The position numbers and the translations under genes are program-made. From NCBI GenBank assembly GCA_004284765.1, contig NQJD01000007.1, forward strand, positions 70,831-102,830: a DNA stretch of 32,000 bases, given 5' to 3'. This document shows, in pieces, positions 90 through 23,552 of the stretch. Source of the DNA: Candidatus Electronema aureum (GTDB lineage Bacteria > Desulfobacterota > Desulfobulbia > Desulfobulbales > Desulfobulbaceae). Positions within the stretch are counted from its first letter, which is position 1. The number at the start of each line of letters is the position of its first letter. The notes under the pieces were generated by a model. That model saw only the letters and a list, made by a program, of their open reading frames with translations. It had not been told where the DNA came from and searched no databases.

Positions 90-105
90 TGGCACAGTTC
101 TTGCT
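90..105 (+). promoter_or_regulatory. sigma-54 (RpoN) -24/-12 promoter upstream of the pilin gene
   Basis: TGGCACagttcTTGCT at 90-105 matches the TGGCAC-N5-TTGC consensus exactly. It lies about 80 nt upstream of the pilin ATG at 187. RpoN/PilR-dependent pilA promoters are established in Geobacter, Myxococcus and Pseudomonas. Confidence 0.6.
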
Positions 106-186: not shown

Positions 187-621
187 ATGAAACTGAATCA
201 ATTGAAAATGAAAGCCAACGAGAAAGGCTTCACCCTGATCGAGCTGATGATCGTTATCGCCATCATCGGTATCTTGGCGGCAGTAGCAATTCCTAACTTC
301 ATTGCGTATCGTGATAAATCGTATTGTTCAGCTGCTGAATCGGATGCAAATGCGATTGCTGCTTCCTTGGCAGATTATTATGCCATTCCTACACATACAG
401 CTGCAATCACAGGTGCTATTGCCAACGGCGCAACACAGCTTCTCGGTATGAAAGTATCACAATTGTCAGGAACTAATACCGCTGGTATTTCTGGAACAAT
501 AGATAGGTTAGTTATTACTGTAACTGACGGCTCTAAACGTTGCCCTACAGACTACCGGAAGGCTATTGATGATTGGAGTGATACTGCTGCTGGTGGTGTT
601 TTCACAAAGACAATGGAATAA
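187..621 (+). CDS. pilA: type IVa pilin (PilA-like major pilin precursor)
   Basis: The ORF track gives 28..621, but the ATG at 187 is preceded by GGAGG (176-180). The product MKLNQLKMKANEKG/FTLIELMIVIAIIGILAAVAIPNFIAYRDKS has the classic class III signal (G/F cleavage site, Glu5) and a hydrophobic N-terminal helix. The C-terminal half is rich in Ser, Thr, Gly and Ala, and carries two Cys (YCS and RCP). Confidence 0.9.
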   Translation: MKLNQLKMKANEKGFTLIELMIVIAIIGILAAVAIPNFIAYRDKSYCSAAESDANAIAASLADYYAIPTHTAAITGAIANGATQLLGMKVSQLSGTNTAGISGTIDRLVITVTDGSKRCPTDYRKAIDDWSDTAAGGVFTKTME

Positions 622-654
622 AGTTTCAAGTAGCAACGTCAAGTGAAGCAAAAG

Positions 655-690
655 GAGGTGCATTTCTGCACCTCTTTCTCTATTTTTTAT
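655..690 (+). terminator. rho-independent terminator after the pilin gene
   Basis: GAGGTGCA (655-662), loop tttc, TGCACCTC (667-674), followed by the T-rich tract tttctctatttttta. Confidence 0.6.
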
Positions 691-810
691 TGGGGCAAAC
701 CGATTGATCAGTCACATTTAACCTTGTGATGATAGATAGTTAAGACAGCGTATCAACATTTTTGCCCCACCACCCTGTTTTTCATATAACTATTTGTTTT
801 TAGAATAAAT

Positions 811-2913
811 TTGAAAAAATTCAACCGTATGAATAAATCTATAGTTAACTGGAATCATTCATTCGTATTTTTTTTAATTGCATGCATTGTTTTTGTTACA
901 TACTCTAACACTTTCAATGCGTCATGGCAGCTCGATGATGAGCCAAATATAACCAACAACAGCAAAATACATGTTACCACGTTAAATTTTCATCAAATAA
1001 ACAATACGTTTAGAGCAAATCCAATTGTCAATGATAAACTTTACCGCCCTCTTCCGTGCCTAACCTTTGGTCTAAATTGGTATGTAGGGCAAGGTAATGT
1101 ATTTGGATATCATATAGTTAATCTTGCAATCCATATTTTGACCACTTGGTTTCTTTTTTTATCTCTGCATCTGCTCCTGCACATCCATTATCAAAAAAAA
1201 TATCCGGCGCAATTTTTTTTCACCGCTGCTTTGTTTGGCACACTATTTTGGGCATTGGCTCCCATTCAGACCCAAGCTGTTACATATATAGTTCAGCGCA
1301 TGGCATCAATGGCGGCAATGTTCACTATTATTGCCATCTACGCTTATTTGCGGGGGAGAACAGAAAGAAAATACGCATGGTTCATCCTCTGTTTACTTTC
1401 TTTTTTTGCCGCTTTAGCCAGTAAAGAAAATGCTATTCTTTTGCCCCTTTCCTTGGTACTTATTGAATTTGCCTTTTTCCCTCATCGGATCACAAAAAAA
1501 CAGCTATTTCGCTTGATATTTAGCAGTCTCATAATCTTGATAGCGGGCTTTCTTTTTGTTCGCTACGGCTTAGGTCTCGTTCCGTTTAAGCTATCCAATC
1601 CCCTAAGCTTCCTTGACAGCTACGCAAACCGTTCCTTTTCATTTAGTGAGCGCATCCTTACTCAGCCTCGCATTGTGCTGATGTATCTTTCTCAGATATT
1701 TCTGCCAGTGGTAGAACAATTTTCCATCGAGCATGATATTGTTATGTCAAGCTCCCTATTTTTTCCTTGGACAACATTGCCTGCAATGTTAACAATTTTA
1801 CTGTCTATATTAGCAGCTATTTTTTTCTTGAAAAAATATCCACTAATCTGCTTCCCTGTTCTTTTTTTCTTCCTAAATCATGTCGTAGAATCAACTATTT
1901 TGCAATTAGAGCTGATTTTTGAACACCGCAATTACCTCCCTTCATTTTTTCTTTTCCTTCCTATAGGCGTTCTAATTGCCCGCATTTTATACAGTAATCC
2001 GAAGCAGTCGGCTTTCCGACAGGTCACGGCTGCGTTGTGTTCAATTTTTTTTCTGATTGTTTTTGGTCAAGCGACCTATACTCGTAATTTAGCTTGGGCA
2101 ACAGAATATACCTTATGGGCAGATGCCATTCGCAAAGCTCCTAACAGTTCAAGAGCAGCACATCATTTGGGTAAATGGCATTATTATTCTAAGAACTACA
2201 ATCACGCAATTTATTATTTTCAATTAGCATTACGCAGCACAGATAAAGCGCCAACACCGAAATATAGCAAATACCTTGTTCTTAATGCATTAGGATTAAG
2301 CTATGCTGCTCTTGGAAAACACAATCAGGCAATCCTGTATCTTAATCAGTGTTTAGAATTAGGCGATTATGCAGAATGTTTACAGAACAGATCCGTTGTG
2401 TATGCTGACAAAAAAATGTATAAGCAGGCATTGACCGATGCTACACAGTTAGCCAATTCTGTTACTGATTACATTTATCAATTAAATGTAGCCATCGTTG
2501 CTTTTGAAGCCGGAAATTATGCAACTTCTTATGGGTATCTAAAAAAAATAATCAATTTTTCTCTTGAAAACCATCAAGTCATGCATTTAGCTGGTCTTTT
2601 GCTGATGAAAGAAGGTGCCTATCCAAATAGCTTATTTTTTTTAAAGCAGGCAAATAAGCTCGCGCCTGATGAAATCAGTTATCAGCTTACTCTCGCTGCT
2701 GCATATCATGTGGATCATCAACCTGCGTTAACAGAAACGGTTCTGAATGATATATTCAAAAAATACTCGCTACCTGTCATTACCAATGCTCTAAAGGAGT
2801 TCAGACGGCAGAATAGCTTCGTTATCAATGCAGTCAGCTTCATCGAACGTCGTATTGACAGCATGATCAAAACTAATGCGATAAACCATGAACAACAACC
2901 ACCTGCACCGTAA
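811..2913 (+). CDS. polytopic GT-C-type membrane protein with C-terminal TPR repeats (TMTC/PMT-like putative protein O-glycosyltransferase)
   Basis: 700-aa ORF starting at TTG 811, with the first ATG at 829. The N-terminal ~420 aa are very hydrophobic with many TM helices. The first loop carries WQLDDEPNITNN, resembling the x-x-DD-x-x-x-I-x-x-N loop motif of TMTC/PMT-type GT-C enzymes. The C-terminal ~270 aa contains TPR-like repeats (e.g. ALGLSYAALGKHNQAILYLNQCLEL). The gene is visibly AT-rich compared with its downstream neighbours. Confidence 0.6.
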   Translation: MKKFNRMNKSIVNWNHSFVFFLIACIVFVTYSNTFNASWQLDDEPNITNNSKIHVTTLNFHQINNTFRANPIVNDKLYRPLPCLTFGLNWYVGQGNVFGYHIVNLAIHILTTWFLFLSLHLLLHIHYQKKYPAQFFFTAALFGTLFWALAPIQTQAVTYIVQRMASMAAMFTIIAIYAYLRGRTERKYAWFILCLLSFFAALASKENAILLPLSLVLIEFAFFPHRITKKQLFRLIFSSLIILIAGFLFVRYGLGLVPFKLSNPLSFLDSYANRSFSFSERILTQPRIVLMYLSQIFLPVVEQFSIEHDIVMSSSLFFPWTTLPAMLTILLSILAAIFFLKKYPLICFPVLFFFLNHVVESTILQLELIFEHRNYLPSFFLFLPIGVLIARILYSNPKQSAFRQVTAALCSIFFLIVFGQATYTRNLAWATEYTLWADAIRKAPNSSRAAHHLGKWHYYSKNYNHAIYYFQLALRSTDKAPTPKYSKYLVLNALGLSYAALGKHNQAILYLNQCLELGDYAECLQNRSVVYADKKMYKQALTDATQLANSVTDYIYQLNVAIVAFEAGNYATSYGYLKKIINFSLENHQVMHLAGLLLMKEGAYPNSLFFLKQANKLAPDEISYQLTLAAAYHVDHQPALTETVLNDIFKKYSLPVITNALKEFRRQNSFVINAVSFIERRIDSMIKTNAINHEQQPPAP

Positions 2914-4069
2914 ACAAACCCTTCTCTGGCTTGCCGTCCTGCTGCTTGCCGTGACAGGTTTCACTGTCGCCCTTTATTCCGCCCACAGCCATTATCAGAA
3001 CTACACCGACCCACTTTACAGCAGCTTTTGTGCCATCAGCCAAGCCATCAACTGTGACACGGTCGCGCAAAGTCCGTGGTCAGTTATATTTGCAATCCCG
3101 GTCGCGTGGTGGGGTGTGCTGTTCCATGTTTTCCTCCTGCTCATCCTCCTGACAGAAGACCGTCGCAATCTTGCAGCTTGGCAGGGATTCTTCTTTGTGA
3201 TGCTCATCGCCTCCGCTGTCACACTGGGGCTGGCGGCCATCGCCGTCACGCAGATAAAATCGCTTTGCCTTGTTTGTCTTGTCACCTACGCCATCACCTT
3301 TGCCCTGACCTACACTTGCTGGATTGGCAGACGGCGGTGCAAAGAGGCTGTTGAAAAAAGCACCGAAGGATTCAGCGCAACATTCAGCAAGAAAGACATG
3401 CTGCGCAATTACAACGTCGCCGCCGGGGTGTTCTGCGTCAGCCTGCTGCTGCTATATGGCCTGATGCCCCGCTACTGGCTGCTTGCTCCGGCGCAGGCGG
3501 ACATCAGTGGCCTGCCGCAGGGCGTGACTGCTGACGGTCATCCTTGGATCGGAGCGGAAAAACCGCAGCTGACCATAACGCAATTTTCTGATTACCAGTG
3601 CTTTCAATGTAGCAAAATGTATTTCTTGTTACGCCAGTTCTTGATTGCGCACCCCGACACGCTGCGTTTTGTTCATCGTCATTATCCGATGGATCATAAA
3701 GTCAATTCAGTCATCGTGCCGGATGCGTTTCACGAAGGTTCAGGAGATTTGGCGAAAGTTGCCATCTTAGCCGCAATACGGAATAAATTCTGGTCAACTA
3801 ATGAGCTGCTCTACTCGATGATGCGCAGCGGCGGCAAGGTCAAAGAAATTTCTCTCAAAGAACTTGCGGAGAAAACTGGACTTGATAACAACGAACTTTC
3901 CGCTGCCTTGTCGCATCTGGCCATAGCAGAAATGCTCCGCCGGGACATCTGGGACGGCATGAAGCTGGGTATTACCGGCACACCGGCTTTTGAAATTAAC
4001 GGCAAAGTCTATCAAGGTCATATTCCTGCCGAAATCCTCAAACAGATTGCCGAGCTGCCGAAAAAATGA
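2888..4069 (+). CDS. VKOR-domain / DsbA-like thioredoxin fusion (periplasmic disulfide-bond formation protein)
   Basis: The N-terminal membrane domain has loop cysteines (FCAISQAINCD), SPWS, and a TM CXXC (SLCLVCLV), as in vitamin K epoxide reductase homologues. The C-terminal domain has the DsbA-type active site FSDYQCFQC. The ATG at 2888 overlaps the upstream stop by 26 nt. Confidence 0.85.
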   Translation: MNNNHLHRKQTLLWLAVLLLAVTGFTVALYSAHSHYQNYTDPLYSSFCAISQAINCDTVAQSPWSVIFAIPVAWWGVLFHVFLLLILLTEDRRNLAAWQGFFFVMLIASAVTLGLAAIAVTQIKSLCLVCLVTYAITFALTYTCWIGRRRCKEAVEKSTEGFSATFSKKDMLRNYNVAAGVFCVSLLLLYGLMPRYWLLAPAQADISGLPQGVTADGHPWIGAEKPQLTITQFSDYQCFQCSKMYFLLRQFLIAHPDTLRFVHRHYPMDHKVNSVIVPDAFHEGSGDLAKVAILAAIRNKFWSTNELLYSMMRSGGKVKEISLKELAEKTGLDNNELSAALSHLAIAEMLRRDIWDGMKLGITGTPAFEINGKVYQGHIPAEILKQIAELPKK

Positions 4070-5757
4070 CTTCGCAGCAAGCAAGCTTCGTCGGTGACCA
4101 CAAGAGCATCCGCTGGCTGTCGGCCGTTTGTCTTGCGCTGGCTGTCGTCTGTGTCGCGCTCTTAGCCTGCACCCCGCCCTTTGATCGTGATGGTCTAATT
4201 CACCATCTCCAAATTCCCAAGCTCTACCTTCAGCACGGCAGCATCTACGAGATTCCCGATCTCGTTTTTTCCTACTACCCCATGAATTTAGATATGCTCT
4301 ACATGGGAGCCTTATGGCTTGGCAGCGACATCTTGCCTAAATATATCCACATGGCTTTTGCTTTCGCCACGGCCCTGCTGCTTTTTTTTCATCTAAAAAA
4401 ACGGATAGCCAGCACCTATGCGTGGCTGGGAGCGGTCTTTTTCCTCAGCGTTCCGGTCATTGTCAAGCTCTCGGTGACGGTTTACGTTGACCTTGGCTTG
4501 GTCTTTTTCAGCACCGCTGCTTTGCTGTTGCTTTTTCGTTGGTTAGAGACAAAACGATGGCAGCACCTGCTGCTGGCAGGATTCTGCGGCGGCTTGGGTA
4601 TCGGCACCAAATATAACGGGCTATTAGTGCTCTTTATCCTGACTTTCATGGTTCCGGTGCTATGGATCAGAAGTCAGGTGTTGCATCAGAGAGCTGCTGG
4701 CCCGGCTGTGAAGGCGGCTGTGCTGTTCTGCCTTGCCGCGCTGCTGGCCGCCTCGCCGTGGTTGATCAGAAATGCGGTCTGGACCGGCAACCCGATTTAT
4801 CCACTCTACAACGGCTTTTTTAACCGAGCTGCTGCGTCTGCTGAAGATACTGCAACCAGTGATGGTGAAGCGCAGGGTGGCGGGGTTCGGGGCGTGTTCG
4901 CCACTCGCCATGTTTTATACGGAGAAAATATTTGGCAGCTGATCCTGCTACCGGTGAGGATTTTTTTTCATGAAGCGCAGGATGACGATCCTCGCTATTT
5001 TGATGGCAGACTCAATCCCTTTCTTCTGATTTTACCTATCCTTGCCTTGCTTCGTAGTATACGACAAGCAAACAAACAAACTCAACTTGAGCAAATAGCC
5101 TTGGCCGCATTCTGCTTGCTCTATTTTCTTTTCGCCTTCAACACCGGGGTACTGCGCATTCGCTATCTGGTGCCGATGGTGCCATTCCTGGTGATTTTAT
5201 CCATGTACGGGTTATATCATATTGAAATGCTCACGCCAAAACACGTGGCAAAACAAAGCATTGCTCTTGCAATCTGGCTGCTACCGATAACCCTGATGCT
5301 GATTTGGAACGGTCATTATCTTTATGGCCAGTTCAAAAAAATTTCTCCGTTGAGCTATATCAGTGGACGGTTAAGCAGGGATGAATATTTAGCCAAACAA
5401 CTTCCCGAATATCAGGTAATGCAATACGCTAACAAGCATTTACCTGCTTCAGCCAAAATTCTTTGTATTTTTATGGGCTGGCGGGGCTATTATTTGGAGA
5501 AGCCGCATTCATTTGACTCTCACGGCAATCCAAATGGCTTGATAGCTTTGCTGAACAAGCCCGGAACAACAGCAGAACAAATTGGACAATGGCTAAAAGA
5601 AAAAGGCTTCAATTATTTGCTGATTCGGCGGGATTTGCTCTACAATCAGCTGCGCAGCGAAGATATCAACGCCCAGCAGCTCTGGGTTGAGCTGGAACAA
5701 AAGCATTTGCTGCCGCTCTCATCCAATCAGGAATATACTCTATATCAGGCCTTCTGA
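4066..5757 (+). CDS. polytopic GT-C-fold membrane glycosyltransferase-like protein (PMT_2/ArnT/GT39-like)
   Basis: 563 aa with roughly 10 or more hydrophobic helices. It has an acidic first-loop motif (PPFDRDGLIHH) and a GTKYNGLLVL segment typical of PMT_2/ArnT-like proteins, plus a soluble C-terminal ~130 aa. An ATGA start/stop overlap (4066-4069) joins it to the VKOR-DsbA gene. The family assignment rests on motif resemblance only. Confidence 0.55.
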   Translation: MTSQQASFVGDHKSIRWLSAVCLALAVVCVALLACTPPFDRDGLIHHLQIPKLYLQHGSIYEIPDLVFSYYPMNLDMLYMGALWLGSDILPKYIHMAFAFATALLLFFHLKKRIASTYAWLGAVFFLSVPVIVKLSVTVYVDLGLVFFSTAALLLLFRWLETKRWQHLLLAGFCGGLGIGTKYNGLLVLFILTFMVPVLWIRSQVLHQRAAGPAVKAAVLFCLAALLAASPWLIRNAVWTGNPIYPLYNGFFNRAAASAEDTATSDGEAQGGGVRGVFATRHVLYGENIWQLILLPVRIFFHEAQDDDPRYFDGRLNPFLLILPILALLRSIRQANKQTQLEQIALAAFCLLYFLFAFNTGVLRIRYLVPMVPFLVILSMYGLYHIEMLTPKHVAKQSIALAIWLLPITLMLIWNGHYLYGQFKKISPLSYISGRLSRDEYLAKQLPEYQVMQYANKHLPASAKILCIFMGWRGYYLEKPHSFDSHGNPNGLIALLNKPGTTAEQIGQWLKEKGFNYLLIRRDLLYNQLRSEDINAQQLWVELEQKHLLPLSSNQEYTLYQAF

Positions 5758-8482: not shown

Positions 8483-9418
8483 TCAGAACCATCTTTTTTT
8501 CATGAGAAAAAGAACACCAAGAGCTGACATGCTGAATGATATTCCCAACACAATAAAGGCTGAATAGGTTGAATGTTGAAAAGGGAGTTCAATATTCATT
8601 CCGTAAAAACTTGCAATCAGCGTTGGAATCATCAGAATGATGGTGATGGAGGTCAGTATCTTCATCACCGCATTTAAATTGTTAGAGATGACCGAGGCGA
8701 ACGCATCCATCATACCACTAAGAATGTTGCTGTAGATATTCGCCATCTCTATAGCTTGCTTATTCTCGATGATCACATCTTCCAACATGTCTTCATCATC
8801 ATCATTCAATTTGAGCGTTTTTATTTTTAGCAGACGTTCCATCATCAGCTCGTTTGACTTCAGAGAAGTTGTAAAAAATACTAAACTTTTTTCTAAGTTT
8901 AGCAGTTTGATCAGCTCCTCGTTTTTCAGAGACTTCTGTAACTCTTTTTCGATGTCTCCTGTCCGCCGGTTAATTTCTTTTAAAAATTTTAAATACAATA
9001 AGGCTGTACGTAGAAAAATGCGAAGAACAAACCCTATTTTACTGCTGGGAACAATATTTTTTGCCTTGCCAACATGCAATTCAAGAATATCTGTAATATC
9101 TGATGAGCATACAGTAATGAGCATGTTGTTATTTGCAAGTATTATTCCTGCCGGGAGTGTTACAAAAGGGATTTCTGAATTTTTTTCATCGTATTCAGGG
9201 ATTCTCAATACAATGAGAAGATTGCCTTCTTCTATCTCAATCCTTGCTCGTTCATCAATATCTAACGGGTCTGTTAAGAAATCGAGAGGAATGCAGGTTG
9301 CTTTGGATAACTGTTCGAGTTCTTGTTTTGCCGGGCAGATAACATTTATCCAGCAATTTTCTTCAATCGTATCAGTCTCAATATATCCGCTTCCTGACCA
9401 TTTGAATAGTTGAATCAT
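8483..9418 (-). CDS. corA: CorA-family divalent cation (Mg2+/Co2+) transporter
   Basis: 311 aa. The C-terminus has two TM helices bracketing YGMNIELPF (the GMN signature). The gene is strongly AT-rich compared with flanking genes. Confidence 0.85.
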   Translation of the reverse strand: MIQLFKWSGSGYIETDTIEENCWINVICPAKQELEQLSKATCIPLDFLTDPLDIDERARIEIEEGNLLIVLRIPEYDEKNSEIPFVTLPAGIILANNNMLITVCSSDITDILELHVGKAKNIVPSSKIGFVLRIFLRTALLYLKFLKEINRRTGDIEKELQKSLKNEELIKLLNLEKSLVFFTTSLKSNELMMERLLKIKTLKLNDDDEDMLEDVIIENKQAIEMANIYSNILSGMMDAFASVISNNLNAVMKILTSITIILMIPTLIASFYGMNIELPFQHSTYSAFIVLGISFSMSALGVLFLMKKRWF

Positions 9419-14897: not shown

Positions 14898-17420
14898 TTA
14901 CTTCCGTTTGTCTGTTGCCAGCACCGAGTAAAACTTATCGATCATCCGCTTGTGACTGAGAGCAACGCTAGAATCACGCAGCAGCAGGCTGGTCATGTCT
15001 TTTTCCGAAATCGGCATACTGAAGAGATAGCCTTGGCCTTCGTCACAGCGGCTTTTTTGAAGAAAAAAGAGATGTTCCTCGGTTTCAATACCTTCAGCGA
15101 TGACCTTGAAGCCGAGATTTTTGGCAATGGAGATAATGCCCAACGTGATGGCCGCATCAGTCTTGTTGGTGGTGACATTGGTGATGAAAGAGCGGTCGAT
15201 TTTTATTTTATCTACCCGTAAATGTTGGAGATAACTAAAGGAAGAATAGCCGGTACCAAAGTCATCAATGGCTGTTTTCACGCCCTGCTCTCGCAGTTTG
15301 TTGATCAGATCAACCGTGAATTCCATATTCTCAATGAGTACACCTTCGGTGAACTCCACCTCCAATGCCTCAGGCGGATAACCGGTGCTTTCAATGCAGC
15401 TCATGATCTGATGGTAGAGATCACGCCGTCGCAGCAGTCGTCCGGAGAGATTGACCGCCATGATGAATTTCTTAAAGCCCATGTCCCGCCATTTTTTCCC
15501 TTGAGCGCAGGCTTTGCGTACTAAGTCCAAGCCGAGCTTTTCGATCAGGCCGGTGTTTTCGGCAATAGGAATGAAGGCTGCCGGAGAAATCATCCCCTTG
15601 ACTGGATGCACCCAGCGGGCGAGTGCTTCCATACCGCAGATCGAACCGTTGGTTAGGCTGACTTGAGGCTGATAGTAATTGATCAGCTCGTTGTCCGCCA
15701 CGGCCTTGCGTAGGTCGTTTTCCAAATACAGGCTTTCTGCCGCTTGGATTTTCATCCCGCTGTCCCACGAGCAGATGCGGTTGCCGCCTTCGCCCTTGGC
15801 CGCCTCCATTGCTGTGTCTGCATTACGCAAGATTTCCAACGGACTGCCACCGTCTTCGGGATAAACGCTAAAGCCGATGCTGGGCCGAATGAGAATAGCG
15901 CGGGCTTCATTGTTGACCGGGGTGCGGAAACGCTGCATGATTTTTTCTGCCAGCTTTTTAGCCCGCTCTCGGCTTGCAGGTGGTGGCAGAACTATGGCAA
16001 ATTCATCTCCACTCAGGCGAGCAACTAAATCTGCACCTGCGTCGTCAGCACATTTCTTGAGAATCGTGGCTACGCTGCACAGGATTTTATCGCCGAAGCC
16101 AGGGCCAAAGATGCGGTTGATGCGCTTGAAATGATCGAGATCAACATAGAGCAGCGCAATGCCGCCCTCAGATTCCTTACCGAGCAGCGAAATAGAATCC
16201 TCAAGATACTGCTGAAATGAAGGACGATCAGCCAAGCCAGTTAGCGCATCTATGCCGAGACTGCCTGTACGCTGATTTTCCTTGGCTGAAGCTGCGGTAG
16301 CAGGAGGAAAGGTGCAGCGTTGGAGAGCTGATTCGTTATCCTTCGGGAAAAGCAAGCAGATGTACCCTTTTTCCCTGCCCTCTTCGTCACCCTCGCTGCG
16401 GGTAATAGACAGGGCTGAAGGTTGTAGCTCGCATTTCTGCTCATCCTGGGCACCTTGGAGCAGTGCCGCCTTGCCCTGCCAACTGCCTTTTTCTTCGGCC
16501 TCTTGCAGTGCTTCTTCTAAGCTCTGGTTTGGTTCGGTCAGTTCAATCAGCTGATCAAGCCGTTTGGTCTGTACTGCGTTCAGTGTGCAGTCACAGCGAT
16601 TGAGGAAAACAGGATTCGCATATAGAATTTTCTGTTCTACGCTGATAAACAGGATGCCGCAGCTTTGACTATCCATGACCTGTCGCCGGATAGACAGCTC
16701 TTTCTGCATCCTAAACGAGGCAGTTCTGGCCTGATGGAGTTGGGATTTGTATTGCATCAACTGCTGATGCAGGATTTCAACGCCGACATCCGGCTCTGCT
16801 GCCACGTCCCCGGTTTCTTCATCAAGAGGTGTTAGTTGTTCCTCTTCCTCATGTACTTCCGGCTCTGGCTTTGGTGCTTCGCTCTTTTTTTCGTCGATCT
16901 TCAGCTCGACAGGCGGCACAGCCACAGTCGGTTTGATGCTGTCATTTTCTGATGGTGCAACTTCTTCTTGCTGTTCACGCCCAATACTTATTGTGCCCCA
17001 GCTCATGATATGTTCTTCACAAAAAATGACTGCTGGAACGCTGTGGCCCGGAGCAAGTCCTTTGCTTCGGCTCACCGGCTTAACCGTCACGGTAAAACAA
17101 ACCGGCCCAGTTTTTATCACGCTGATTAAGCGGGAAAACTGGCGAAACGGCTCAACCGTCAGCTGTGGTTCCTCAACGCCATCTATTACAAAAGTTAGCT
17201 GGAAAACAGTCTCTTGCTGTTCTGAGGACGGAGGCAGGCGCAGCTCTTCCGGCTGCCAGCTGATGACCGCGCTGGCACTGGTACTGTTTTTGTTTTTATC
17301 AAGAAAGGGGAAAGGGCTTTTGAACCGGCAGAACTGGCAGGTGAAGCTGTTGGTTTCAATCAGAGCCGGGCTTAGAGTGATGCTATTCCGCTGTCCGCAT
17401 TCCTCACAAAAGAGAATCAT
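14898..17420 (-). CDS. c-di-GMP signalling protein: N-terminal zinc ribbon, acidic linker, PAS-like region, degenerate GGDEF (SGDEF) and EAL phosphodiesterase domain
   Basis: CEECG...(x20)...CQFC zinc-ribbon at residues 5-32. The GGDEF domain has RLSGDEFAIVL. The EAL domain has GMEALARW, NLSGR, DDFGTGYSS, KIDRSF, EGIETEE and GQGYLF. Confidence 0.85.
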   Translation of the reverse strand: MILFCEECGQRNSITLSPALIETNSFTCQFCRFKSPFPFLDKNKNSTSASAVISWQPEELRLPPSSEQQETVFQLTFVIDGVEEPQLTVEPFRQFSRLISVIKTGPVCFTVTVKPVSRSKGLAPGHSVPAVIFCEEHIMSWGTISIGREQQEEVAPSENDSIKPTVAVPPVELKIDEKKSEAPKPEPEVHEEEEQLTPLDEETGDVAAEPDVGVEILHQQLMQYKSQLHQARTASFRMQKELSIRRQVMDSQSCGILFISVEQKILYANPVFLNRCDCTLNAVQTKRLDQLIELTEPNQSLEEALQEAEEKGSWQGKAALLQGAQDEQKCELQPSALSITRSEGDEEGREKGYICLLFPKDNESALQRCTFPPATAASAKENQRTGSLGIDALTGLADRPSFQQYLEDSISLLGKESEGGIALLYVDLDHFKRINRIFGPGFGDKILCSVATILKKCADDAGADLVARLSGDEFAIVLPPPASRERAKKLAEKIMQRFRTPVNNEARAILIRPSIGFSVYPEDGGSPLEILRNADTAMEAAKGEGGNRICSWDSGMKIQAAESLYLENDLRKAVADNELINYYQPQVSLTNGSICGMEALARWVHPVKGMISPAAFIPIAENTGLIEKLGLDLVRKACAQGKKWRDMGFKKFIMAVNLSGRLLRRRDLYHQIMSCIESTGYPPEALEVEFTEGVLIENMEFTVDLINKLREQGVKTAIDDFGTGYSSFSYLQHLRVDKIKIDRSFITNVTTNKTDAAITLGIISIAKNLGFKVIAEGIETEEHLFFLQKSRCDEGQGYLFSMPISEKDMTSLLLRDSSVALSHKRMIDKFYSVLATDKRK

Positions 17421-17707: not shown

Positions 17708-18241
17708 ATGAGTGAAAACGGACAAAAAGGCCTATTGATAGTCTATACCGGCAACGGCAAGGGCAAGACCACTGCCGCCCTCGGCTTGACCTTGCGCGCT
17801 CTCGGTCACGGTCACCGGGTTTGCTTTATTCAGTTCATCAAAGGCAGCTGGAAGTACGGCGAGCTGACCGCAGTGGAACGTTTTGCCGATTTGCTCGACT
17901 TTCATGTGATGGGCCGTGGTTTCACTTGGAAATCCGATGATCTGGAAAAAGATGCCGCTGCTGCCCGTGAGGGCTGGGAACTGGTACAAAAGATCATCGC
18001 CGAAGGAAGACATCAGCTGGTAGTTTTGGACGAGCTGACCTACTTGGTCAGGTACAACATGCTGTCTGAACAGGAAATCTTAGACGTGCTGGCGCGACGC
18101 GGGCCGTCTGTGCATGTGGTGGTTACGGGCCGAGGAGCTGGAGAACAGCTCATGCAGGCTGCTGATTTAGTCACCGAGCTGCGCGAGGTTAAGCACCCCT
18201 ACCGACAAGGAATCAAGGCGCAGAAGGGAATTGAATTCTAA
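17708..18241 (+). CDS. cobO: cob(I)yrinic acid a,c-diamide adenosyltransferase (CobO/BtuR type)
   Basis: The P-loop YTGNGKGKTTAALG, FIKG, LDELTY and EVKHPY are characteristic of CobA/CobO/BtuR. AAGGA lies 9 nt upstream of the ATG. Confidence 0.9.
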   Translation: MSENGQKGLLIVYTGNGKGKTTAALGLTLRALGHGHRVCFIQFIKGSWKYGELTAVERFADLLDFHVMGRGFTWKSDDLEKDAAAAREGWELVQKIIAEGRHQLVVLDELTYLVRYNMLSEQEILDVLARRGPSVHVVVTGRGAGEQLMQAADLVTELREVKHPYRQGIKAQKGIEF

Positions 18242-19371
18242 GGCGCAGCAGGCCCGTCTTCCCGCTCCTGCTTTCTCTGAGAGCGATCTTCGTCCAACTG
18301 CTGAAGACCTTCCATCAGCAGCTTCATAAAATAACCAATCTCAGGCGCATCAAAATCCTCTGGCGGCAAGCCAGGATTAAACTTGAAGCGACCTTTCTTT
18401 TCTCTAAGTATCTTGAAGAACGCTTCTTTACCCTTCTGTCCGTCGTAAGATGCCTTGATCAGCGCACCTTGCCGCAGTGAGAAACGGGCCGTACCTTTTG
18501 ACACTTCTGTAATAGTGAGAATACCGGTCTTGGCGTTGGCGTGCAGGGTTTGAAACAGGGCTTCCGGCGGAATTTCCTCTAATCTGCCGATCATCCCAGA
18601 AGCATAGTCATCAAAACGAATTTTGTTCGAGCGGCTTAGGCGCTGGGCCATCAGTTTAGTGAAATAACGCTGCATGGTCGGATAGCGATCTAACACGAGC
18701 TGAAAATGGCGGTGGTGGACGCTAAGAATCTTGCAATCCATCGCCGCTTGGACAGTAGCCCCGATGTTCTCGTCGCAAATCAGGCTCATTTCACCGAAAA
18801 CTTCCCCTTGCTCTAAGGTCGAGATAGAAATACCGGTATCGTTGAGAATGCTCACCTTGCCCTCGGCCACAATATACAGCTTACTGCCCGGTGCGCCTTG
18901 ACGGATGATAATGTCGTCCTTCTTAAATTCCTCCAGCTCGGCATGGCGCAGCAATTCAGCTAAACTTTCATGACTGATGATCTGGAAAAAAGGGAAGCGG
19001 CTCAATTCATCAAGCAGAGTGGAGAGTTCCTTGTTGCTGTTCAGCAGAGCTTCCTGCTCTGGGCCAGTTTTTCTATTCCGGTTGTGTTCCAAGCGGAGGG
19101 AGCCGGTGCAACCAGTGCAGGAAATCAGACAGTCTGGGATTTGGTCGGCACGCTCATATTTGATGATGATTTTGACTAAATCGCCGTAGAGAATTTCACA
19201 ATTTTCCCGGTTCTGATTAGTATGAACAGCAGTACTGTTGACAAAGGAGCTGTCTCCGCCGTTGGTTCGCATCATCACTGCCACGCCAGAAACCGTGAAG
19301 GAATCACCGTACTGGAACTTTGGACAGTTCAGGGTCTCGCAGACCCGAAAGATTACTCGTGGAACTCCCAT
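18238..19371 (-). CDS. cyclic-nucleotide-binding protein with Cys-rich N-terminal domain and C-terminal DUF4388-like domain
   Basis: The central cNMP-binding domain has IIRQGAPGSKLYIV..G.V and FGEMSLI. The C-terminus (GMIGRLEEIPPEALFQTLHANAKTGILTI...GKEAFFKIL) resembles DUF4388. The N-terminal ~95 aa carries cysteines at CETLNC, NCE, and CLISCTGCTG. Confidence 0.7.
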   Translation of the reverse strand: MGVPRVIFRVCETLNCPKFQYGDSFTVSGVAVMMRTNGGDSSFVNSTAVHTNQNRENCEILYGDLVKIIIKYERADQIPDCLISCTGCTGSLRLEHNRNRKTGPEQEALLNSNKELSTLLDELSRFPFFQIISHESLAELLRHAELEEFKKDDIIIRQGAPGSKLYIVAEGKVSILNDTGISISTLEQGEVFGEMSLICDENIGATVQAAMDCKILSVHHRHFQLVLDRYPTMQRYFTKLMAQRLSRSNKIRFDDYASGMIGRLEEIPPEALFQTLHANAKTGILTITEVSKGTARFSLRQGALIKASYDGQKGKEAFFKILREKKGRFKFNPGLPPEDFDAPEIGYFMKLLMEGLQQLDEDRSQRKQEREDGPAAP

Positions 19372-19428: not shown

Positions 19429-21081
19429 ATGGTCTATTATGACCAGAAAGTTTTCGTGAGCGCAACGTTTTTGTCGAAAAACATGTTTCTTTCCGGCAGC
19501 AGCCAGATGACCGCCATGCTAAGAACCTGCGTGACATCCACAGGGAAATTTCGGGTCGGCGTACACCGACCAAGCTATGCTGTTCGTAATTTGCGAGACC
19601 AAGATTTTTTGCTGCGTCTCGGCACACTGCCCGACGGCACCGTAGTGGACAATCAAGCGAATTTCCCCTCGGGCGATGTGCGTGAGACGGAAGGCCGCTG
19701 GATTTACGAAATCCCCAATGCCTTTCCTTGTCACGGCGCGACCTATATTGACTCCGTTTGGGCAGCGGCGCGTGCTGAGAACCCCGGCCTGATTCAAATT
19801 GAACCGCCGCCGGAATGCTCCCTCTCGCAGTCGCTTGGCCTGAGCGAAGAAGAACGACGAAGTGTGCTTGACCACCTGCCTTTACCGCTGAAATACGCTT
19901 TAGCCGCTAGTTCCACCGACCCAGAAGAGCTGATTCTGCTGGCGCACACCTGCTGCCGGATGGAGTTTAACGGCGAAGGTCAGCCCGTCGGCCTGAAATA
20001 TTTGCGGCCCGGCAAAGCGGACATTGATGATTTCGAGCTGTTCGAGACCATTGCCAATAACCCACATCTGCCTGATCAATACAAAGAGATCATGGTGCTG
20101 CGGCCCGGTGTGCAGGGCAACAGCGAGATTATTGGCCGTTACGCAGAGGACACCCATGTGTTCGAGTACCTGCGCCGTAACTCCTATATCCCGTGGGGCC
20201 ATTATGCCGCCAACATGGCGCACGATGCTGTCCGCTACCGCACCTCTGATCTGACCTTCAGCGACATCAGAGGATTGCGCCATCTCTATTATCAGCGAAT
20301 GATCGTCACACTGGCCGAACGCTTCGGCATCAATCTTGATTTGCCCAAACGCAGTTTGACGACGGATGAGCTGGAATCTTTGCGCAGAAAAGTGCTGACA
20401 GCGGCAGAACAAAGCGGCCAGCATCCAGCCACGCTTTGGGGCTGGAATTTCGGTTATGATTTCTCCGGCTCCGGTTATCGGCTCCATGCCTCCCATCAGA
20501 TGATTCATCAGCAGTACGCGCTCACTCCTGAAGAGATTGAGACAACGGACGGCGACGCGATGCCGAGCTATAGTTGCGGTGATCAAGTGGCAGAAGTGAT
20601 TGCACAGTACGGTGGCGATTTTTTTTGTGATTATCTTCGCTGCATCCGCGAGAATAAGCGCACAGACCGCGATCCGGCAAAAGAGCGCAGTTTAATTGTC
20701 CACGAAGATGCAAACATGCTGCTTTTTGTGCCCAAGGCGCAGACTTCACAGTGGGAATTGCAGCTCATGGTTATTGCCGATGCGGATGGCCAGCCAATCG
20801 GCAATGTGCTGGAGGCGGACGCGGCGGTGCGCGAGTCAATTGACCGTGGCATCCTGCTGGCCCAGCATATCTTTGCAAAACTGGGGGCAAGAATGGTCAC
20901 TTCGCTGGAATACTCCAAGCGGATCGGCATCCGCAACGGCCAGCGGCTGCTCTATGCCTTTCTGCCCAAGCTGCCGTGGTCAATGGGCGCATTCAGCGAG
21001 GCCCAGCACCGGTATATCAGCAGTCATTTTCCAGAGGATTTTGCGACGGCGTGCCGCAGGCAGATTGAACACATTCAATGA
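19429..21081 (+). CDS. hypothetical protein (about 520-550 aa, no family recognised)
   Basis: A long ORF with coding-like composition, same strand as the next gene and 16 nt upstream of it. The start is uncertain: candidate ATGs at 19429, 19483, 19507 and 19516, none with a clear SD. Notable segments are YIPWGHYAANMAHDAVRY, WGWNFGYDFSGSGYRLHASHQMIHQQY, and LLFVPKAQTSQWELQLMV. The last faintly recalls GalT/HIT-type half-domains. Confidence 0.6.
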   Translation: MVYYDQKVFVSATFLSKNMFLSGSSQMTAMLRTCVTSTGKFRVGVHRPSYAVRNLRDQDFLLRLGTLPDGTVVDNQANFPSGDVRETEGRWIYEIPNAFPCHGATYIDSVWAAARAENPGLIQIEPPPECSLSQSLGLSEEERRSVLDHLPLPLKYALAASSTDPEELILLAHTCCRMEFNGEGQPVGLKYLRPGKADIDDFELFETIANNPHLPDQYKEIMVLRPGVQGNSEIIGRYAEDTHVFEYLRRNSYIPWGHYAANMAHDAVRYRTSDLTFSDIRGLRHLYYQRMIVTLAERFGINLDLPKRSLTTDELESLRRKVLTAAEQSGQHPATLWGWNFGYDFSGSGYRLHASHQMIHQQYALTPEEIETTDGDAMPSYSCGDQVAEVIAQYGGDFFCDYLRCIRENKRTDRDPAKERSLIVHEDANMLLFVPKAQTSQWELQLMVIADADGQPIGNVLEADAAVRESIDRGILLAQHIFAKLGARMVTSLEYSKRIGIRNGQRLLYAFLPKLPWSMGAFSEAQHRYISSHFPEDFATACRRQIEHIQ

Positions 21082-21097
21082 TGAAGGATATGGAGCC

Positions 21098-21910
21098 ATG
21101 AAAAAAGTCGCATCGCTGAAATACGGGGTCGTTTTCAGAAAGGCGTTCTGCGATCCTGAGATATTCACCGCATTTGCGCAGGACATCATCGGCCTGCCTG
21201 TGAGTGTCGAGCTGGTGGAGACGGAGAAGGAGTTTGAGCCGCCTGTCGGCTATATCAAGCCGCGCTTCGATCTCTTTGCCGAAGACACGCAGCACCGGAT
21301 CATCATTGACATCCAACACGCACGCACCGCCGACCACTACGACCGTTTTCTGTACTATCACTGCGCCGCTCTGTTGGAACAAATCGCCAGCTCACACAAC
21401 TACCGCCCACCTTTGGCCGTCTATACCGTGGTAGTCCTCACCTCTGGCGACCGTCATCAATGCGACATTGCGGTGACGGATTTTGATCCTCATGATCTCG
21501 CAGGCAGGCCACTGAAGGAGATTCCCCACAAGGTGATTTATCTTTGCCCGAAATATGCGGACGAAAACACGCCGGAGCCGCGCCGCGCTTGGCTGCGCGC
21601 CATTAACGACACGCTTGACGAGGAAGTTGATGAAAGTCTGTACCAGCAGAGCGCGATTCAGAAGCTCTTTGCCGCCATTCAACGCAACTGCTTCTCCCCA
21701 GAAGAGCGGGCGCGGATGATTGAGGAGTATCATCAAGAGGAGCTGCGTCAGACCAAGTTTGAGGAGGGGAAAGCGGAGGGCATACGGATCATTGCGGAAC
21801 GGATGCTGCGGCAAGGCATTGCGCCGGAGATGGTTGCTGAAGCTACAGAGCTGTCTACTGCCGAACTGGCCACGCTTGCGGATGAGATGCGGTGGAAGGC
21901 GGATTATTGA
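21098..21910 (+). CDS. PD-(D/E)XK nuclease family protein (Rpn/PDDEXK_2 'putative transposase' type)
   Basis: The true start is ATG 21098 (GGAG 3 nt upstream), inside track ORF 20696..21910. Pattern: VVFRKAFCDPEIF..FAQDIIGLPV, then FDLFAED, then IIIDIQHAR...YDRFLYYHCAAL (a D...D-x-Q core, as in the E-x-Q of this family). The C-terminus has EEGKAEGIRIIAERMLRQGIAPEMVAEATELSTAELATLA, the typical tail of this family. Confidence 0.75.
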   Translation: MKKVASLKYGVVFRKAFCDPEIFTAFAQDIIGLPVSVELVETEKEFEPPVGYIKPRFDLFAEDTQHRIIIDIQHARTADHYDRFLYYHCAALLEQIASSHNYRPPLAVYTVVVLTSGDRHQCDIAVTDFDPHDLAGRPLKEIPHKVIYLCPKYADENTPEPRRAWLRAINDTLDEEVDESLYQQSAIQKLFAAIQRNCFSPEERARMIEEYHQEELRQTKFEEGKAEGIRIIAERMLRQGIAPEMVAEATELSTAELATLADEMRWKADY

Positions 21911-22162
21911 ATGGAGATGAAAATGCAGGCAAATATAAACAAGGTTCAGATTGGTCATCAGACAATTGATCTGCTTGATCTCCCTGAAGTAGCGCAGCAG
22001 GAATTGCTGACATTTTATAATTTCTTGATCTTTAAATATCAGGTGCGGAAGGAACGTGCTGATCAGGACAGAAAGACTGTTCTAAAAGGCATCTTTCAGG
22101 AGGCAAAAGGAAAGTTACCAGCAGGATACGTATTTGACCGGGCAGAGATTCATGAGCGATAG
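21911..22162 (+). CDS. type II antitoxin candidate (DUF2281-like)
   Basis: 83-aa ORF starting immediately after the upstream stop and overlapping the PIN gene by 11 nt. LPEVAQQELLTFYNFLIFKY resembles the DUF2281 antitoxin motif. Confidence 0.6.
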   Translation: MEMKMQANINKVQIGHQTIDLLDLPEVAQQELLTFYNFLIFKYQVRKERADQDRKTVLKGIFQEAKGKLPAGYVFDRAEIHER

Positions 22163-22556
22163 ATTCTTTACCGACACAAATATTCTGGTGTATTCTATGG
22201 CGGATGATCTTCGGAAGAGGGAGATTGCGGAAGAGCTGCTGCTGCAAGACGGCGTTGTAATGAGTCCGCAGGTGATCAGCGAGTTTGTCGCGGTGACACT
22301 TCGCAAGCGTATTTTAGAACCGGAGAAGGTGCTTGAATATGCCCGCAAGTTTCTCCATATTTTTCAAATTACAGCGACCAATGCCGACACCGTTGCGACA
22401 GCCCTTGATGTCATGGCCAAATACCATTTTTCCTATTGGGACAGCCTGATCCTTGCAGCAGCATTGGAAAGTTCGTGCGCTGTGGTTTACTCTGAGGACT
22501 TGCAGACTGGGCAGCAGATTCAAGGCAGACTGACGATTGTCAATCCATTCAAATGA
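22152..22556 (+). CDS. vapC: PIN-domain ribonuclease toxin (VapC-like)
   Basis: The ATG at 22152 gives MSDRFFTDTNILVY (first acidic residue). Later acidic residues are in SPQVISEF, YWDSLILAAA and YSED. 134 aa, classic VapC size and spacing. Confidence 0.8.
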   Translation: MSDRFFTDTNILVYSMADDLRKREIAEELLLQDGVVMSPQVISEFVAVTLRKRILEPEKVLEYARKFLHIFQITATNADTVATALDVMAKYHFSYWDSLILAAALESSCAVVYSEDLQTGQQIQGRLTIVNPFK

Positions 22557-22595
22557 GCACATTTCTTTAAAAGAAATCCAAAGGAGGATATTCCC

Positions 22596-23552
22596 ATGAA
22601 CAAGAGGACTATTTCTATTTGCGGCGCGGCGATGTTTCTTTCGCTGCTGGTGTCTTCGGCGTTTGGCTATGAGAAGGAGATTGAGGAGCTTTCCGCGCAG
22701 ATGGCGGAGAAGATTGCTGGGAAAGGCAAGAAGACCGTTGCGGTGGTGGATTTCACCGATTTGGAAGGCAATGTAACGCAGCTTGATCAGTTTATCGCTG
22801 AAGAATTTTCCGTTGCGCTTGCGAGTGCGGGTAAAGGATTCCGGGTGATTGACAGAACCCGTCTGAAGAGCATTATCAAGGAGAACAAGCTCGCAGCAAC
22901 GGGCCTGATTGATCCGGCAACAGCAAGCAAGTTGGGAAAGATTGCCGGAGTTGATGCGCTGGTGACAGGAACGCTGACACCGTTTGGCGACAACGTGCGG
23001 CTAACGGTCAAGGTATTGGATTCAGAGACGGCAGACATTATCGATTCAGCAAAAAGCAATTTTGCGAAGACGCAGGCGATTAACGAGCTGTTTGGGAAAG
23101 AAATCGATTCAAAAAATGTTTCTTCTCTTACAGAGAGAACGAAAGCGGCAGATGGAAAAACGGCAGATTCTCAGGTTGTTAAAGGTATATTGTTTGAAGC
23201 GAAAGGGTGTAAACTATCCGGCGGATCGTTAATCTGTCGCCTCCTTGTTACAAGTCAAGATGAAGATAAAGAAATTTCTGTTTTCAATGACCATGACTGG
23301 AGTGCAAGGACTAGAGTTTTTGACAACATGTCAAACGAATATAGAGCATCTATGTTGGAAATAGCAAATAAAAAATCTAGATCAAGCAGTGCTGGACACA
23401 CGCTTGTGTCTGGAGTTGCAACAAAATTAGCTTTTACTTTTGAAGGGATTAAAGAGAGTATGGAGTCTTTATCGCTTCTCGAAGTGGCTTTTTCAGATGA
23501 AAACGATAACAGAAGCAAGGCGCAACTCCGCAATATCCCTGTATCAAGGTAG
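22596..23552 (+). CDS. secreted protein with FlgO/LpoB/CsgG-like (TolB-N-like) domain plus an unknown C-terminal domain
   Basis: Strong SD (AAAGGAGG) and the signal peptide MNKRTISICGAAMFLSLLVSSAFG. KTVAVVDFTDLEGNVTQLDQFIAEEFSVALA...GFRVIDRTRL...KLGKIAGVDALVTGTLTPFGDNVRLTVKVLDSETADII matches the FlgO/LpoB-type fold pattern. The last ~140 aa could not be assigned. Confidence 0.65.
   Translation: MNKRTISICGAAMFLSLLVSSAFGYEKEIEELSAQMAEKIAGKGKKTVAVVDFTDLEGNVTQLDQFIAEEFSVALASAGKGFRVIDRTRLKSIIKENKLAATGLIDPATASKLGKIAGVDALVTGTLTPFGDNVRLTVKVLDSETADIIDSAKSNFAKTQAINELFGKEIDSKNVSSLTERTKAADGKTADSQVVKGILFEAKGCKLSGGSLICRLLVTSQDEDKEISVFNDHDWSARTRVFDNMSNEYRASMLEIANKKSRSSSAGHTLVSGVATKLAFTFEGIKESMESLSLLEVAFSDENDNRSKAQLRNIPVSR

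Follow-up and report, generated by a model that had tools for sequence, protein, structure and literature searches.

The glycosylation of type IV pilins in the periplasm, from a lipid-linked donor, is carried out by TfpO/PilO and PglL, i.e., enzymes with a Wzy_C domain, the tfpO gene lying directly after pilA. With respect to disulfide bonds, fusions of VKOR with a thioredoxin-like domain are known, e.g., the Synechococcus VKOR. In the oligosaccharyltransferase, a GT-C subunit is joined by a thioredoxin-fold oxidoreductase (Ost3/Ost6, TUSC3/MagT1), which couples glycosylation to oxidative folding. The association of a pilin with a dedicated membrane glycosyltransferase (TfpO, TfpW), the VKOR-thioredoxin fusions and the dependence of pili on disulfides are all known already. 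The present analysis concerns a 32-kb window, i.e., the whole stretch of DNA that was analysed, from the genome of the freshwater cable bacterium Candidatus Electronema aureum, where pilA, the gene of the major type IVa pilin, is followed on the same strand by three genes designated here ORF2, ORF3 and ORF4, which encode (i) a predicted GT-C glycosyltransferase bearing TPR repeats, (ii) a VKOR-DsbA fusion, and (iii) a second predicted GT-C glycosyltransferase, respectively (Table 1).

Further described systems come close to one or the other of these products. TfpW, the GT-C pilin arabinosyltransferase of Pseudomonas aeruginosa group IV strains (Pa5196, PA7), is a protein of 646 aa whose gene comes straight after pilA and which is needed for pilin glycosylation; it has 11 transmembrane (TM) helices, a DDx motif and TPRs on the periplasmic side (bioRxiv 10.1101/2020.04.19.049825). 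In eukaryotes, TMTC1-4 and TMEM260 are protein O-mannosyltransferases with TPRs, and the TMTC enzymes take mannose from a polyprenyl-phosphate-mannose donor to Ser/Thr of a folded domain. Among human proteins, TMEM260 has 11 TM helices in residues 1-410 followed by TPRs (PMC10214176), and the TMTC proteins carry the signature motifs M1 (DD), M2 (SHKSYRP), M4 (KE(T/Q)xxT) and M7 (ERxxY), located in EL1, EL1, EL3 and EL5, respectively (PMC7801869). In the three-component systems, namely GtrA/GtrB/Gtr*, ArnC/ArnEF/ArnT and GT136, the donor is a polyprenyl-phosphate sugar, which a GT2 enzyme synthesises, a small transporter flips and a GT-C enzyme then uses (PMC11127046). As for the disulfide arm, the MdbA/VKOR pair is reported to be needed for pilus assembly in Actinomyces and Corynebacterium (PMC9974433).

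The four genes of the E. aureum locus quite likely form one functional module which, on balance, probably supplies the enzymes of this cable bacterium's major type IVa pilin locus and is in charge of the glycosylation and disulfide maturation of the pilin. A candidate module of this kind had been proposed from a first, sequence-only reading of the window, and the proposal is now supported by the identification of the GT-C enzymes, the conservation of the redox cysteines, the synteny across relatives and the link between ORF3 and the pilin cysteines. The module is real and conserved; with respect to its function, read from sequence, predicted structure and gene neighbourhood, it is a candidate. 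The same reading had held that no characterised system of this combination was known and, indeed, a literature search found no description of a major pilin locus where a TMTC-like GT-C enzyme with TPRs is combined with a VKOR-DsbA fusion and another GT-C enzyme; neither was the breadth of such a cluster across Desulfobacterota nor its covariation with pilin cysteines found described.

Table 1. Features of the pilin locus, numbered from the first nucleotide of the window.
Feature	Position	Strand	Remarks
Sigma-54 (-24/-12) promoter	90..105	+	TGGCAC-N5-TTGCT, 82 nt 5' of pilA
pilA, major type IVa pilin	187..621	+	144-aa prepilin, 130-aa mature, C33 and C105
Intrinsic-terminator-like hairpin and T-run	652..690	+	Hairpin 652-677, 11 pairs, 5 GC, 3' of pilA
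ORF2, TMTC/TfpW-like GT-C glycosyltransferase (predicted)	829..2913	+	Alternative TTG start 811; 694/700 aa
ORF3, VKOR-DsbA fusion	2888..4069	+	Overlaps ORF2 by 26 nt; five predicted TM segments and a periplasmic DsbA domain
ORF4, GT-C glycosyltransferase (PMT/PMT_2, GT39/ArnT-like)	4066..5757	+	563 aa; ATGA overlap with ORF3

The pilin gene and its context

The ORF2 product is 100% identical to the NCBI protein CDV28_10763, encoded on a 2.9-Mb contig. The genes and their coordinates, the two gene overlaps, the CLVC and CFQC motifs and the two pilin cysteines reported by the sequence-only reading were all recovered where it had placed them. The prepilin was recognised by Pfam N_methyl (1.3e-10) and by NCBIfam IV_pilin_GFxxxE, i.e., TIGR02532 (1.4e-9); its leader, a class III signal peptide, ends in KG immediately before FTLIE, with E5 and a hydrophobic alpha1-N segment in the mature protein, the N-terminus of which reads FTLIELMIVIAIIGILAAVAIPNF. 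The cysteines are exactly two, namely C33 in KSYC and C105 in RCP (mature numbering), and C33 falls within the alpha1 region, the disulfide loop (D-region) of type IVa pilins being C-terminal. The count of cysteines given by the earlier reading holds; its description of the C-terminal half as Ser/Thr-rich was overstated, serine and threonine amounting to 24% beyond residue 54 and 18% overall.

An exact sigma-54 consensus occurs once in the window, for a chance expectation of 0.07, and this single match is the one 5' of pilA. On a longer contig of the same genome, four minor-pilin genes, pilX and a giant PilY1-like gene are found 5' of the window together with the divergent pilS and pilR, and a homologue of pilR, the sigma-54 activator, is adjacent in 26 related loci. 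Given the uniqueness of the sigma-54 site and this pilS/pilR and minor-pilin context, pilA is therefore taken as the gene of the major type IVa pilin. [quoted passage not shown]

The terminator noted earlier on the 3' side of pilA is present as a hairpin with a T-run, and a strong hairpin followed by a T-run was likewise found after 40/60 major pilin genes of the related loci. Since sigma-70-like sites were no commoner in a promoter scan (10) than in shuffled sequences (9.2), no internal promoter is proposed, and an Rfam scan of the window returned no RNA family.

Conservation of the cluster in related bacteria

Related loci (designated by L numbers) were sampled by a search anchored on ORF4, with one genome per GTDB species, and 80 were fetched, i.e., the best of 348 ORF4 relatives; neighbourhoods were counted in the 37 loci from Desulfobulbales and Desulfobacterales where the ORF4 homologue is flanked by 8 kb or more on either side. 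Within 8 kb of ORF4, a pilA homologue lies upstream in 29/37 loci and downstream in none (0/37), with corresponding counts of 22 and 0 for ORF2 and of 24 and 2 for ORF3. The order pilA-ORF2-ORF3-ORF4 is found again at 35-45% protein identity, e.g., in Desulfoprunum benzoelyticum, Desulfofustis glycolicus, Desulfocapsaceae, Desulfobulbus, Desulfosarcina alkanivorans and many metagenome-assembled genomes (MAGs) of Desulfobacterales. Other layouts keep the linkage in a different form, i.e., pilA-ORF3-ORF4, pilA-ORF4-ORF3 (Desulforhopalus, Desulfopila), pilA-ORF4 alone, or pilA followed by an inverted ORF2 and ORF4; ORF4 comes directly after pilA, without ORF2, in L033, L039, L045 and L079. As such, the neighbourhood analysis that the earlier reading had called for shows the four genes together across two orders of Desulfobacterota despite rearrangements, and the four-gene arrangement is far beyond chance.

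Two features of the arrangement deserve separate mention. ORF2 is found directly 3' of the major pilin gene in 4/6 ORF2-anchored places and in most ORF4-anchored loci. The adjacency of ORF3 and ORF4 is the most constant feature of all, and it is kept where the pair has become detached from pilA, as in Electrothrix YB6, E. laxa and others. On the other side, synteny of the neighbouring plsY-asd-prs genes does not extend beyond Electronema, and gene-order inertia thus does not explain the deep conservation of the cluster.

In many relatives, two ORF2 paralogues stand in tandem (L001 8001-12121; L009 8001-12145; L036, L043, L027), are about 46-49% identical to each other's counterparts and are often followed by a second pilin gene (L001 12258-12737, L002 10192-10662), which suggests one enzyme per pilin or per sugar. 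A further locus (L015, CALNYB010000016.1) comes from a MAG contig labelled 'Cyanobacteriota bacterium', where ORF3 and ORF4 are respectively 71 and 62% identical to the cable-bacterium genes; this contig is probably a mis-binned Desulfobulbaceae.

ORF2, a predicted glycosyltransferase with TPR repeats

From its motifs, its architecture and a transitive homology, the ORF2 product is very likely a GT-C enzyme, the membrane part having no direct structural match. The ATG used for the public protein (829, 694 aa) lies 208 nt 3' of the pilA stop codon. The protein contains WQLDDEPNITNN and TPR repeats, and an AlphaFold2 model (pLDDT 81) predicts 11 TM helices (residues 1-425) followed by a TPR solenoid (426-685), in agreement with Pfam TPR_2 (1e-10) and with the TPR structural matches. 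As the N-terminus is lysine-rich, the first loop and the TPRs are placed in the periplasm. In alignments of 32 and 25 relatives, the near-invariant residues are D36, D37, R73, P74, N83, K199, E200, E361, H366, R367 and Y369, and within the DD of the first periplasmic loop D36 is invariant and D37 conserved to at least 90%.

Several of these residues fall into motifs of the TMTC type. D36-D37 lies in EL1, as does K70-L-Y-R73-P74-L-P-C-L-T-F-G-L-N83, which compares with SHKSYRPLCVLTSFRLN in TMTC1; K199-E200-N provides the KE of M4 in EL3, and E365-H-R367-N-Y369, in the loop between TM9 and TM10, compares with the ERxxY of M7. As such, M1, M2, M4 and an M7-like motif are shared, in the same loops and with similar spacing (PMC7801869), there being 163 residues from DD to KE in ORF2 versus 167 in TMTC; the comparison was made by eye against the motif strings published in PMC7801869 and not against aligned TMTC sequences. 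M3 (RxD) and M5 (DW) are not clearly kept. Like TMTC1-4 (family GT105) and TMEM260, ORF2 combines an N-terminal 11-TM GT-C module with lumenal or periplasmic TPRs, which are thought to select a folded domain. Unlike them, it has no DUF1736 or DUF2723 and only a sub-threshold PMT_2 match, is found in a bacterial host where an undecaprenyl-type donor is expected, and has a pilin as presumed client.

The domain searches proposed for ORF2 by the sequence-only reading were borne out for the TPRs; of the other two families named, PMT_2 reached 17.7 bits for a cut-off of 26.1, with 3/25 relatives matching it (best 2.2e-5), and a TM-only scan gave no DUF1736 match at E<=1 in ORF2 or in the 25 relatives. 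DUF2723 did not match ORF2 either, and sequence and profile searches of the Protein Data Bank (PDB), with the full length and with a TM-only profile, returned nothing meaningful beyond the TPRs. The transitive homology comes from paralogues in related clusters, to which the TM region of ORF2 aligns (tblastn E 2e-15 and 1e-12) and which themselves pass the PMT_2 cut-off (31.5 and 38.4 bits). A comparison of the ORF2 and ORF4 families with hhalign (E 6.5e-4) places D36 on D42 and K199 on K182 over 293 collinear columns; as this alignment is weak (probability 12-28%), it is used only as support. Model, invariant residues, motifs, paralogues and profile comparison make five independent lines that point to the GT-C/PMT clan.

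Two other identities were considered and set aside. Membership of the TMTC family in the sense of Pfam was rejected in view of the missing DUF1736 and the sporadic PMT_2 matches, 'TMTC-like by motifs' being kept. An O-antigen-ligase-type identity, as for TfpO or PglL, was rejected for both ORF2 and ORF4, neither of which matched Wzy_C or PglL; TfpO/PilO and PglL belong to an O-antigen-ligase-like family unrelated to them.

The analogy with pilA-adjacent glycosyltransferase genes had been drawn at the outset from gene position. It stands, and the likeness to TfpW, the closest analogue of ORF2 in bacteria, extends to the described architecture, with the same place after pilA, 11 TM helices, DDx and TPR. 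The TfpW motif YX6PFX7P is not present as such in ORF2, which has Y369-L-P-x6-P instead, and TfpW systems include neither a VKOR-DsbA gene nor a second GT-C enzyme. In the cable-bacteria paper where this cluster was drawn, the ORF2 genes were labelled as TPR proteins for protein-protein interaction (PMC10580974). Relatives of ORF2 number more than 4000, with several paralogues per genome.

ORF4, a PMT/ArnT-like enzyme

The PMT_2 assignment first made for ORF4 could be confirmed above cut-off (34.0 bits versus 26.1), and so could PMT (33.0 bits versus 22.7). The AlphaFold2 model (pTM 0.78) predicts 11 TM helices and a periplasmic alpha/beta domain of 135 aa. A Foldseek search with this model, among the checks initially suggested, matched only GT-C enzymes in the PDB at E < ~1e-3, 19 in all, namely STT3 (best, 2.4e-8), AglB, ArnT (TM-score 0.53-0.57), PglB, AftA and ALG9. 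Invariant residues are D42 in the first periplasmic loop, K182 and R364/R366/Y367. A profile search of PDB sequences with the ORF4 family found nothing meaningful, and the best NCBIfam model, Agl23, scored 31.8 bits for a cut-off of 126.

Two narrower identities were ruled out: a eukaryotic-type PMT, as no MIR domain was matched, and ArnT proper, as there was neither a match to the NCBIfam ArnT equivalog nor any arn gene nearby. ORF4 (+) and plsY (-) converge and share 13 nt at their 3' ends (5745-5757), which leaves no space for a terminator between them.

ORF3 and the cysteines of the pilin

The domains expected in ORF3 were all matched, namely VKOR (1.9e-21), Thioredoxin_4 (3.6e-13) and DSBA (3.2e-12), with the motifs CLVC and CFQC. 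Over 52 homologues, the loop cysteines C48/C56 are conserved to 96%, C127xxC130 and C238FQC241 to 100%, and the cis-proline T365-P366 to at least 95%. From the five hydrophobic segments seen in the sequence, the DsbA domain is assigned to the periplasm. ORF3 is predicted to be a complete and self-contained disulfide generator, performing quinone-dependent thiol oxidation. Like known VKOR-thioredoxin systems, it has a VKOR with loop cysteines and a CXXC feeding a thioredoxin-fold oxidase. It departs from MdbA/VKOR, the genes of which are unlinked to pilin genes and serve sortase-type pili, in lying inside a type IV pilin locus, coupled to a GT-C gene.

The presence of ORF3 follows the cysteines of the pilin. 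ORF3 lies in the locus of 26/28 pilins with the C33/C~105 pair and of 0/7 pilins with zero or one cysteine, ORF4 and usually ORF2 being present in these seven (hypergeometric p ~5e-6, uncorrected for phylogeny). Among Desulfobacterales, L061, L063, L065, L077, L085 and L088 encode Geobacter-like full-length pilins with IPQFSAYR, 114 aa when mature and with 0-1 cysteine; these loci often have tandem pilins, then an inverted ORF2 and ORF4, and no ORF3.

VKOR-DsbA fusions form a large family, with 300 cluster representatives at E<=1e-30. No ORF3-ORF4 fusion protein was found among the best 150 of 16,345 ORF3 relatives, the long ones consisting of VKOR and 2-6 DsbA domains. P0254, P0288, P0348 and about 30 other proteins of the library, 650-1196 aa long, are built of tandem DsbA/Thioredoxin_4 domains, and in those scanned (P0348, P0264, P0243, P0248) two to four such domains come after a VKOR at the N-terminus. 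To our knowledge, an architecture of VKOR with several tandem DsbA domains has not been described.

pilA and ORF2 as a cassette

Within the locus, the G+C content at third codon positions (GC3) is 0.37 in pilA and 0.35 in ORF2 versus 0.61 in ORF3, 0.55 in ORF4, 0.65 in plsY and 0.69 in asd. Among Electronema species, identity is 49-60% for pilA and 37-54% for ORF2, then 69-76% for ORF4 and 87-95% for asd. Within ORF2, the TPR domain is the less conserved part, with a mean identity of 29% versus 50% for the TM domain. Over 21 loci, the distance between pilin heads goes along with the distance between ORF2 TPR domains when the ORF4 distance is controlled for (partial Spearman 0.42, permutation p 0.005, uncorrected for phylogeny). 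Judged from composition and divergence, pilA-ORF2 behaves as a swappable, low-GC and compositionally distinct cassette. The pattern is similar to that of P. aeruginosa, where pilin alleles travel with accessory genes as cassettes.

ORF3 itself occurs in Electronema as two allele types, 72-79% or 44-47% identical to that of the window (L010, L027 versus L011, L012, L013, L030). As the adjacent ORF4 stays at 69-76%, the replaceable cassette would sometimes take in ORF3.

Glycan genes in related loci

In relatives, genes for sugar metabolism are found in or beside the cluster. In Electrothrix, rmlB-like and dTDP-sugar isomerase genes lie directly 5' of pilA. In E. halotolerans, an island of ~14 kb separates a pilA-ORF2-ORF2'-pilA2 block from ORF3-ORF4 and comprises DUF354, AsnB-like, glycoside-hydrolase-like, methyltransferase, oxidoreductase, GT4 and flippase-like LPG_synthase_TM genes. 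In E. gigas, an island of ~11 kb between ORF2 and ORF3 encodes a methyltransferase-GT2 fusion, a UDP-GlcNAc 2-epimerase, a small GT2, a third PMT_2 enzyme and LPG_synthase_TM. In both species, the LPG_synthase_TM gene is directly 5' of ORF3 (E. halotolerans, L013 7790-8749; E. gigas, L019 7797-8819). Since LPG_synthase_TM is the family of the MprF flippase domain, it is a candidate flippase for a lipid-linked sugar donor.

By its predicted products, the E. gigas island corresponds in gene content to the three-component systems of periplasmic glycosylation (PMC11127046), where genes for a GT2, a flippase and a GT-C enzyme likewise go together. The described three-component systems differ in that they act on polysaccharides or lipid A and not on protein, and the synthase and the flippase are absent from the E. 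aureum window. Overall, the sugar genes in the clusters of relatives are of the rml-like, GT2, GT4, epimerase and methyltransferase kinds, D-arabinofuranose pathway genes not having been searched for. TfpW genes are likewise clustered with donor-sugar genes in some species.

Proposed maturation pathway

The substrate, the donor, the order of the steps and co-transcription are what we infer from the above, and both the glycosylation of the pilin and its disulfide are predicted. In the proposed scheme, PilR and sigma-54 would drive pilA, most transcripts ending at the hairpin, and the translationally coupled ORF2-ORF3-ORF4 would be expressed at a lower level through read-through or a weak promoter of their own. 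The prepilin would be anchored in the inner membrane, its head reaching into the periplasm, where all three products would act before pilus assembly. The VKOR-DsbA fusion would oxidise C33/C105 to a disulfide, the electrons passing to quinone. The TPRs of ORF2 would dock on the variable, allele-specific pilin head, and ORF2 would glycosylate Ser/Thr with a sugar taken from a polyprenyl-phosphate donor, D36/D37 forming its catalytic loop. ORF4, tightly coupled to ORF3, might add a further or different sugar or act at a conserved site; as its divergence is independent of that of the pilin, its target would probably be a conserved feature.

The scheme can be carried a step further. In ORF3-ORF4, bacteria might have an equivalent of the oligosaccharyltransferase and its thioredoxin-like subunit, a self-recharging oxidase working with a GT-C enzyme to time pilin glycosylation against oxidative folding, while the swappable ORF2 would add an allele-specific glycan. 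The likeness, for which STT3 as the best structural match of ORF4 can be quoted, is an analogy only, and we regard this extension as distinctly unlikely; if true, PilA would be a heavily glycosylated, disulfide-locked polymer of the periplasm or the cell surface.

Several points weigh against a role of the whole module in maturation of the pilin. A strong terminator stands between pilA and ORF2, for which neither a convincing promoter nor a ribosome-binding site was found. As such hairpins are conserved after pilin genes, though, the terminator is better seen as part of the layout, i.e., an abundant pilin and scarce enzymes, and is no argument against the link. The Ser/Thr content of PilA is ordinary, and genes for donor synthesis (GT2) and for a flippase are absent from this window. 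The break in base composition falls right at the ORF2/ORF3 junction, and the ORF2-ORF3-ORF4 trio is therefore not of one origin; the pilin-head distance is uncorrelated with the ORF4 distance (0.05), and in Electrothrix YB6 the ORF3-ORF4 pair lies ~370 kb from pilA-ORF2. As regards the cysteines, pilins with C29 and a C-terminal cysteine have ORF3 in the cluster in 1/7 loci, from which it follows that not all disulfide pilins depend on a linked oxidase, and the seven Cys-poor loci share a Geobacter-like PQFSAYR pilin and may go back to a single loss.

Alternative explanations

The alternative that survives best, rather unlikely as it is, restricts the pilin-specific part to pilA-ORF2, in a TfpW-like manner, and takes ORF3-ORF4 as a housekeeping envelope pair which is a neighbour by ancestry, ORF3 being a general substitute for DsbA/DsbB and ORF4 an ArnT-like enzyme acting on lipid A, another glycolipid or many proteins. 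The adjacency of ORF3 and ORF4, the most constant in the cluster and kept when the pair is apart from pilA, would be expected of such a pair, yet pilA lies upstream in 29/37 ORF4-anchored loci from two orders, including pilA-ORF4 layouts without ORF2. Composition and divergence separate ORF3/ORF4 from pilA/ORF2, and the ORF4 distance is uncorrelated with that of the pilin, but the glycan islands are inserted between ORF2 and ORF3 and the pair is not displaced. The size of the VKOR-DsbA family and the fact that VKOR homologues stand in for DsbB in bacteria without DsbB would suit a general oxidase, whereas ORF3 is absent from the cluster exactly where the pilin has no cysteine pair. Finally, ArnT is among the best structural matches of ORF4, against which stand the missing ArnT equivalog match and the lack of arn-type genes nearby.

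It is very unlikely that the GT-C pair provides a general periplasmic O-glycosylation, as with Neisseria PglL or in Bacteroidota, or serves the minor pilins or the PilY1-like protein, PilA being one client or none. Although ORF2 relatives and their paralogues are numerous, with some in glycan clusters where no pilin gene lies within 6 kb (L004, L007), ORF2 comes directly after the major pilin gene in 4/6 ORF2-anchored places and in most ORF4-anchored loci. TPR domains are able to bind many partners, and the minor-pilin and PilY1-like genes do adjoin the locus; however, ORF2 varies in step with the pilin head and is exchanged along with pilA, i.e., the pattern expected of a cognate enzyme-substrate pair.

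That the adjacency has no functional meaning, and results from chance or gene-order inertia, is hardly credible despite the terminator between pilA and ORF2 and the mosaic composition of the region, as the linkage is kept at 35-45% identity across two orders and outlasts inversions and changes of order, the internal control gives 29 upstream versus 0 downstream, and plsY, asd and prs are syntenic only within Electronema.

Implications of the proposed pilin maturation module

A maturation module of the kind proposed would bear on several fields. Pilin glycosylation is understood in a handful of pathogens, and here a different set of enzymes is found by the major pilin gene across an environmental phylum, linking glycosylation to disulfide formation at the gene level. 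It would offer a tractable bacterial model for TPR-bearing protein O-glycosyltransferases, the human relatives of which, namely TMTC1-4 and TMEM260, cause disease and have a substrate recognition that is poorly understood. For cable bacteria, the interpretation of proteomic masses, antibodies and envelope chemistry changes if the ORF2 genes are glycosyltransferase genes. As the full four-gene cluster is present in cultured carriers, namely Desulfoprunum benzoelyticum DSM 28570, Desulfofustis glycolicus DSM 9705 and Desulfosarcina alkanivorans PL12, the idea is directly testable.

Other genes of the window

On the 3' side of ORF4 come the convergent plsY, then asd, prs and corA, and then unrelated housekeeping genes. 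The corA gene (8483-9418, -), with a GC of 0.37 and a GC3 of 0.39 for a GC3 of 0.55-0.59 in the neighbouring prs and isocitrate/isopropylmalate dehydrogenase genes, is the second compositionally foreign gene of the window besides pilA-ORF2. Further on, at ~9-13 kb from the pilin locus and with no sign of linkage to it, are the genes of a GGDEF-EAL protein (14898-17420, -) and of a cNMP-binding/DUF4388 protein (18238-19371, -). They are followed by a segment (19429-24129) of lower GC (0.45-0.48) with a sharp rise in GC skew (0.18), which encodes a 550-aa ORF without Pfam match overlapping a 404-aa PD-(D/E)XK transposase-like ORF, then a CsgG/FlgO-like lipoprotein and a 181-aa ORF without match; this segment may be mobile or recently acquired.

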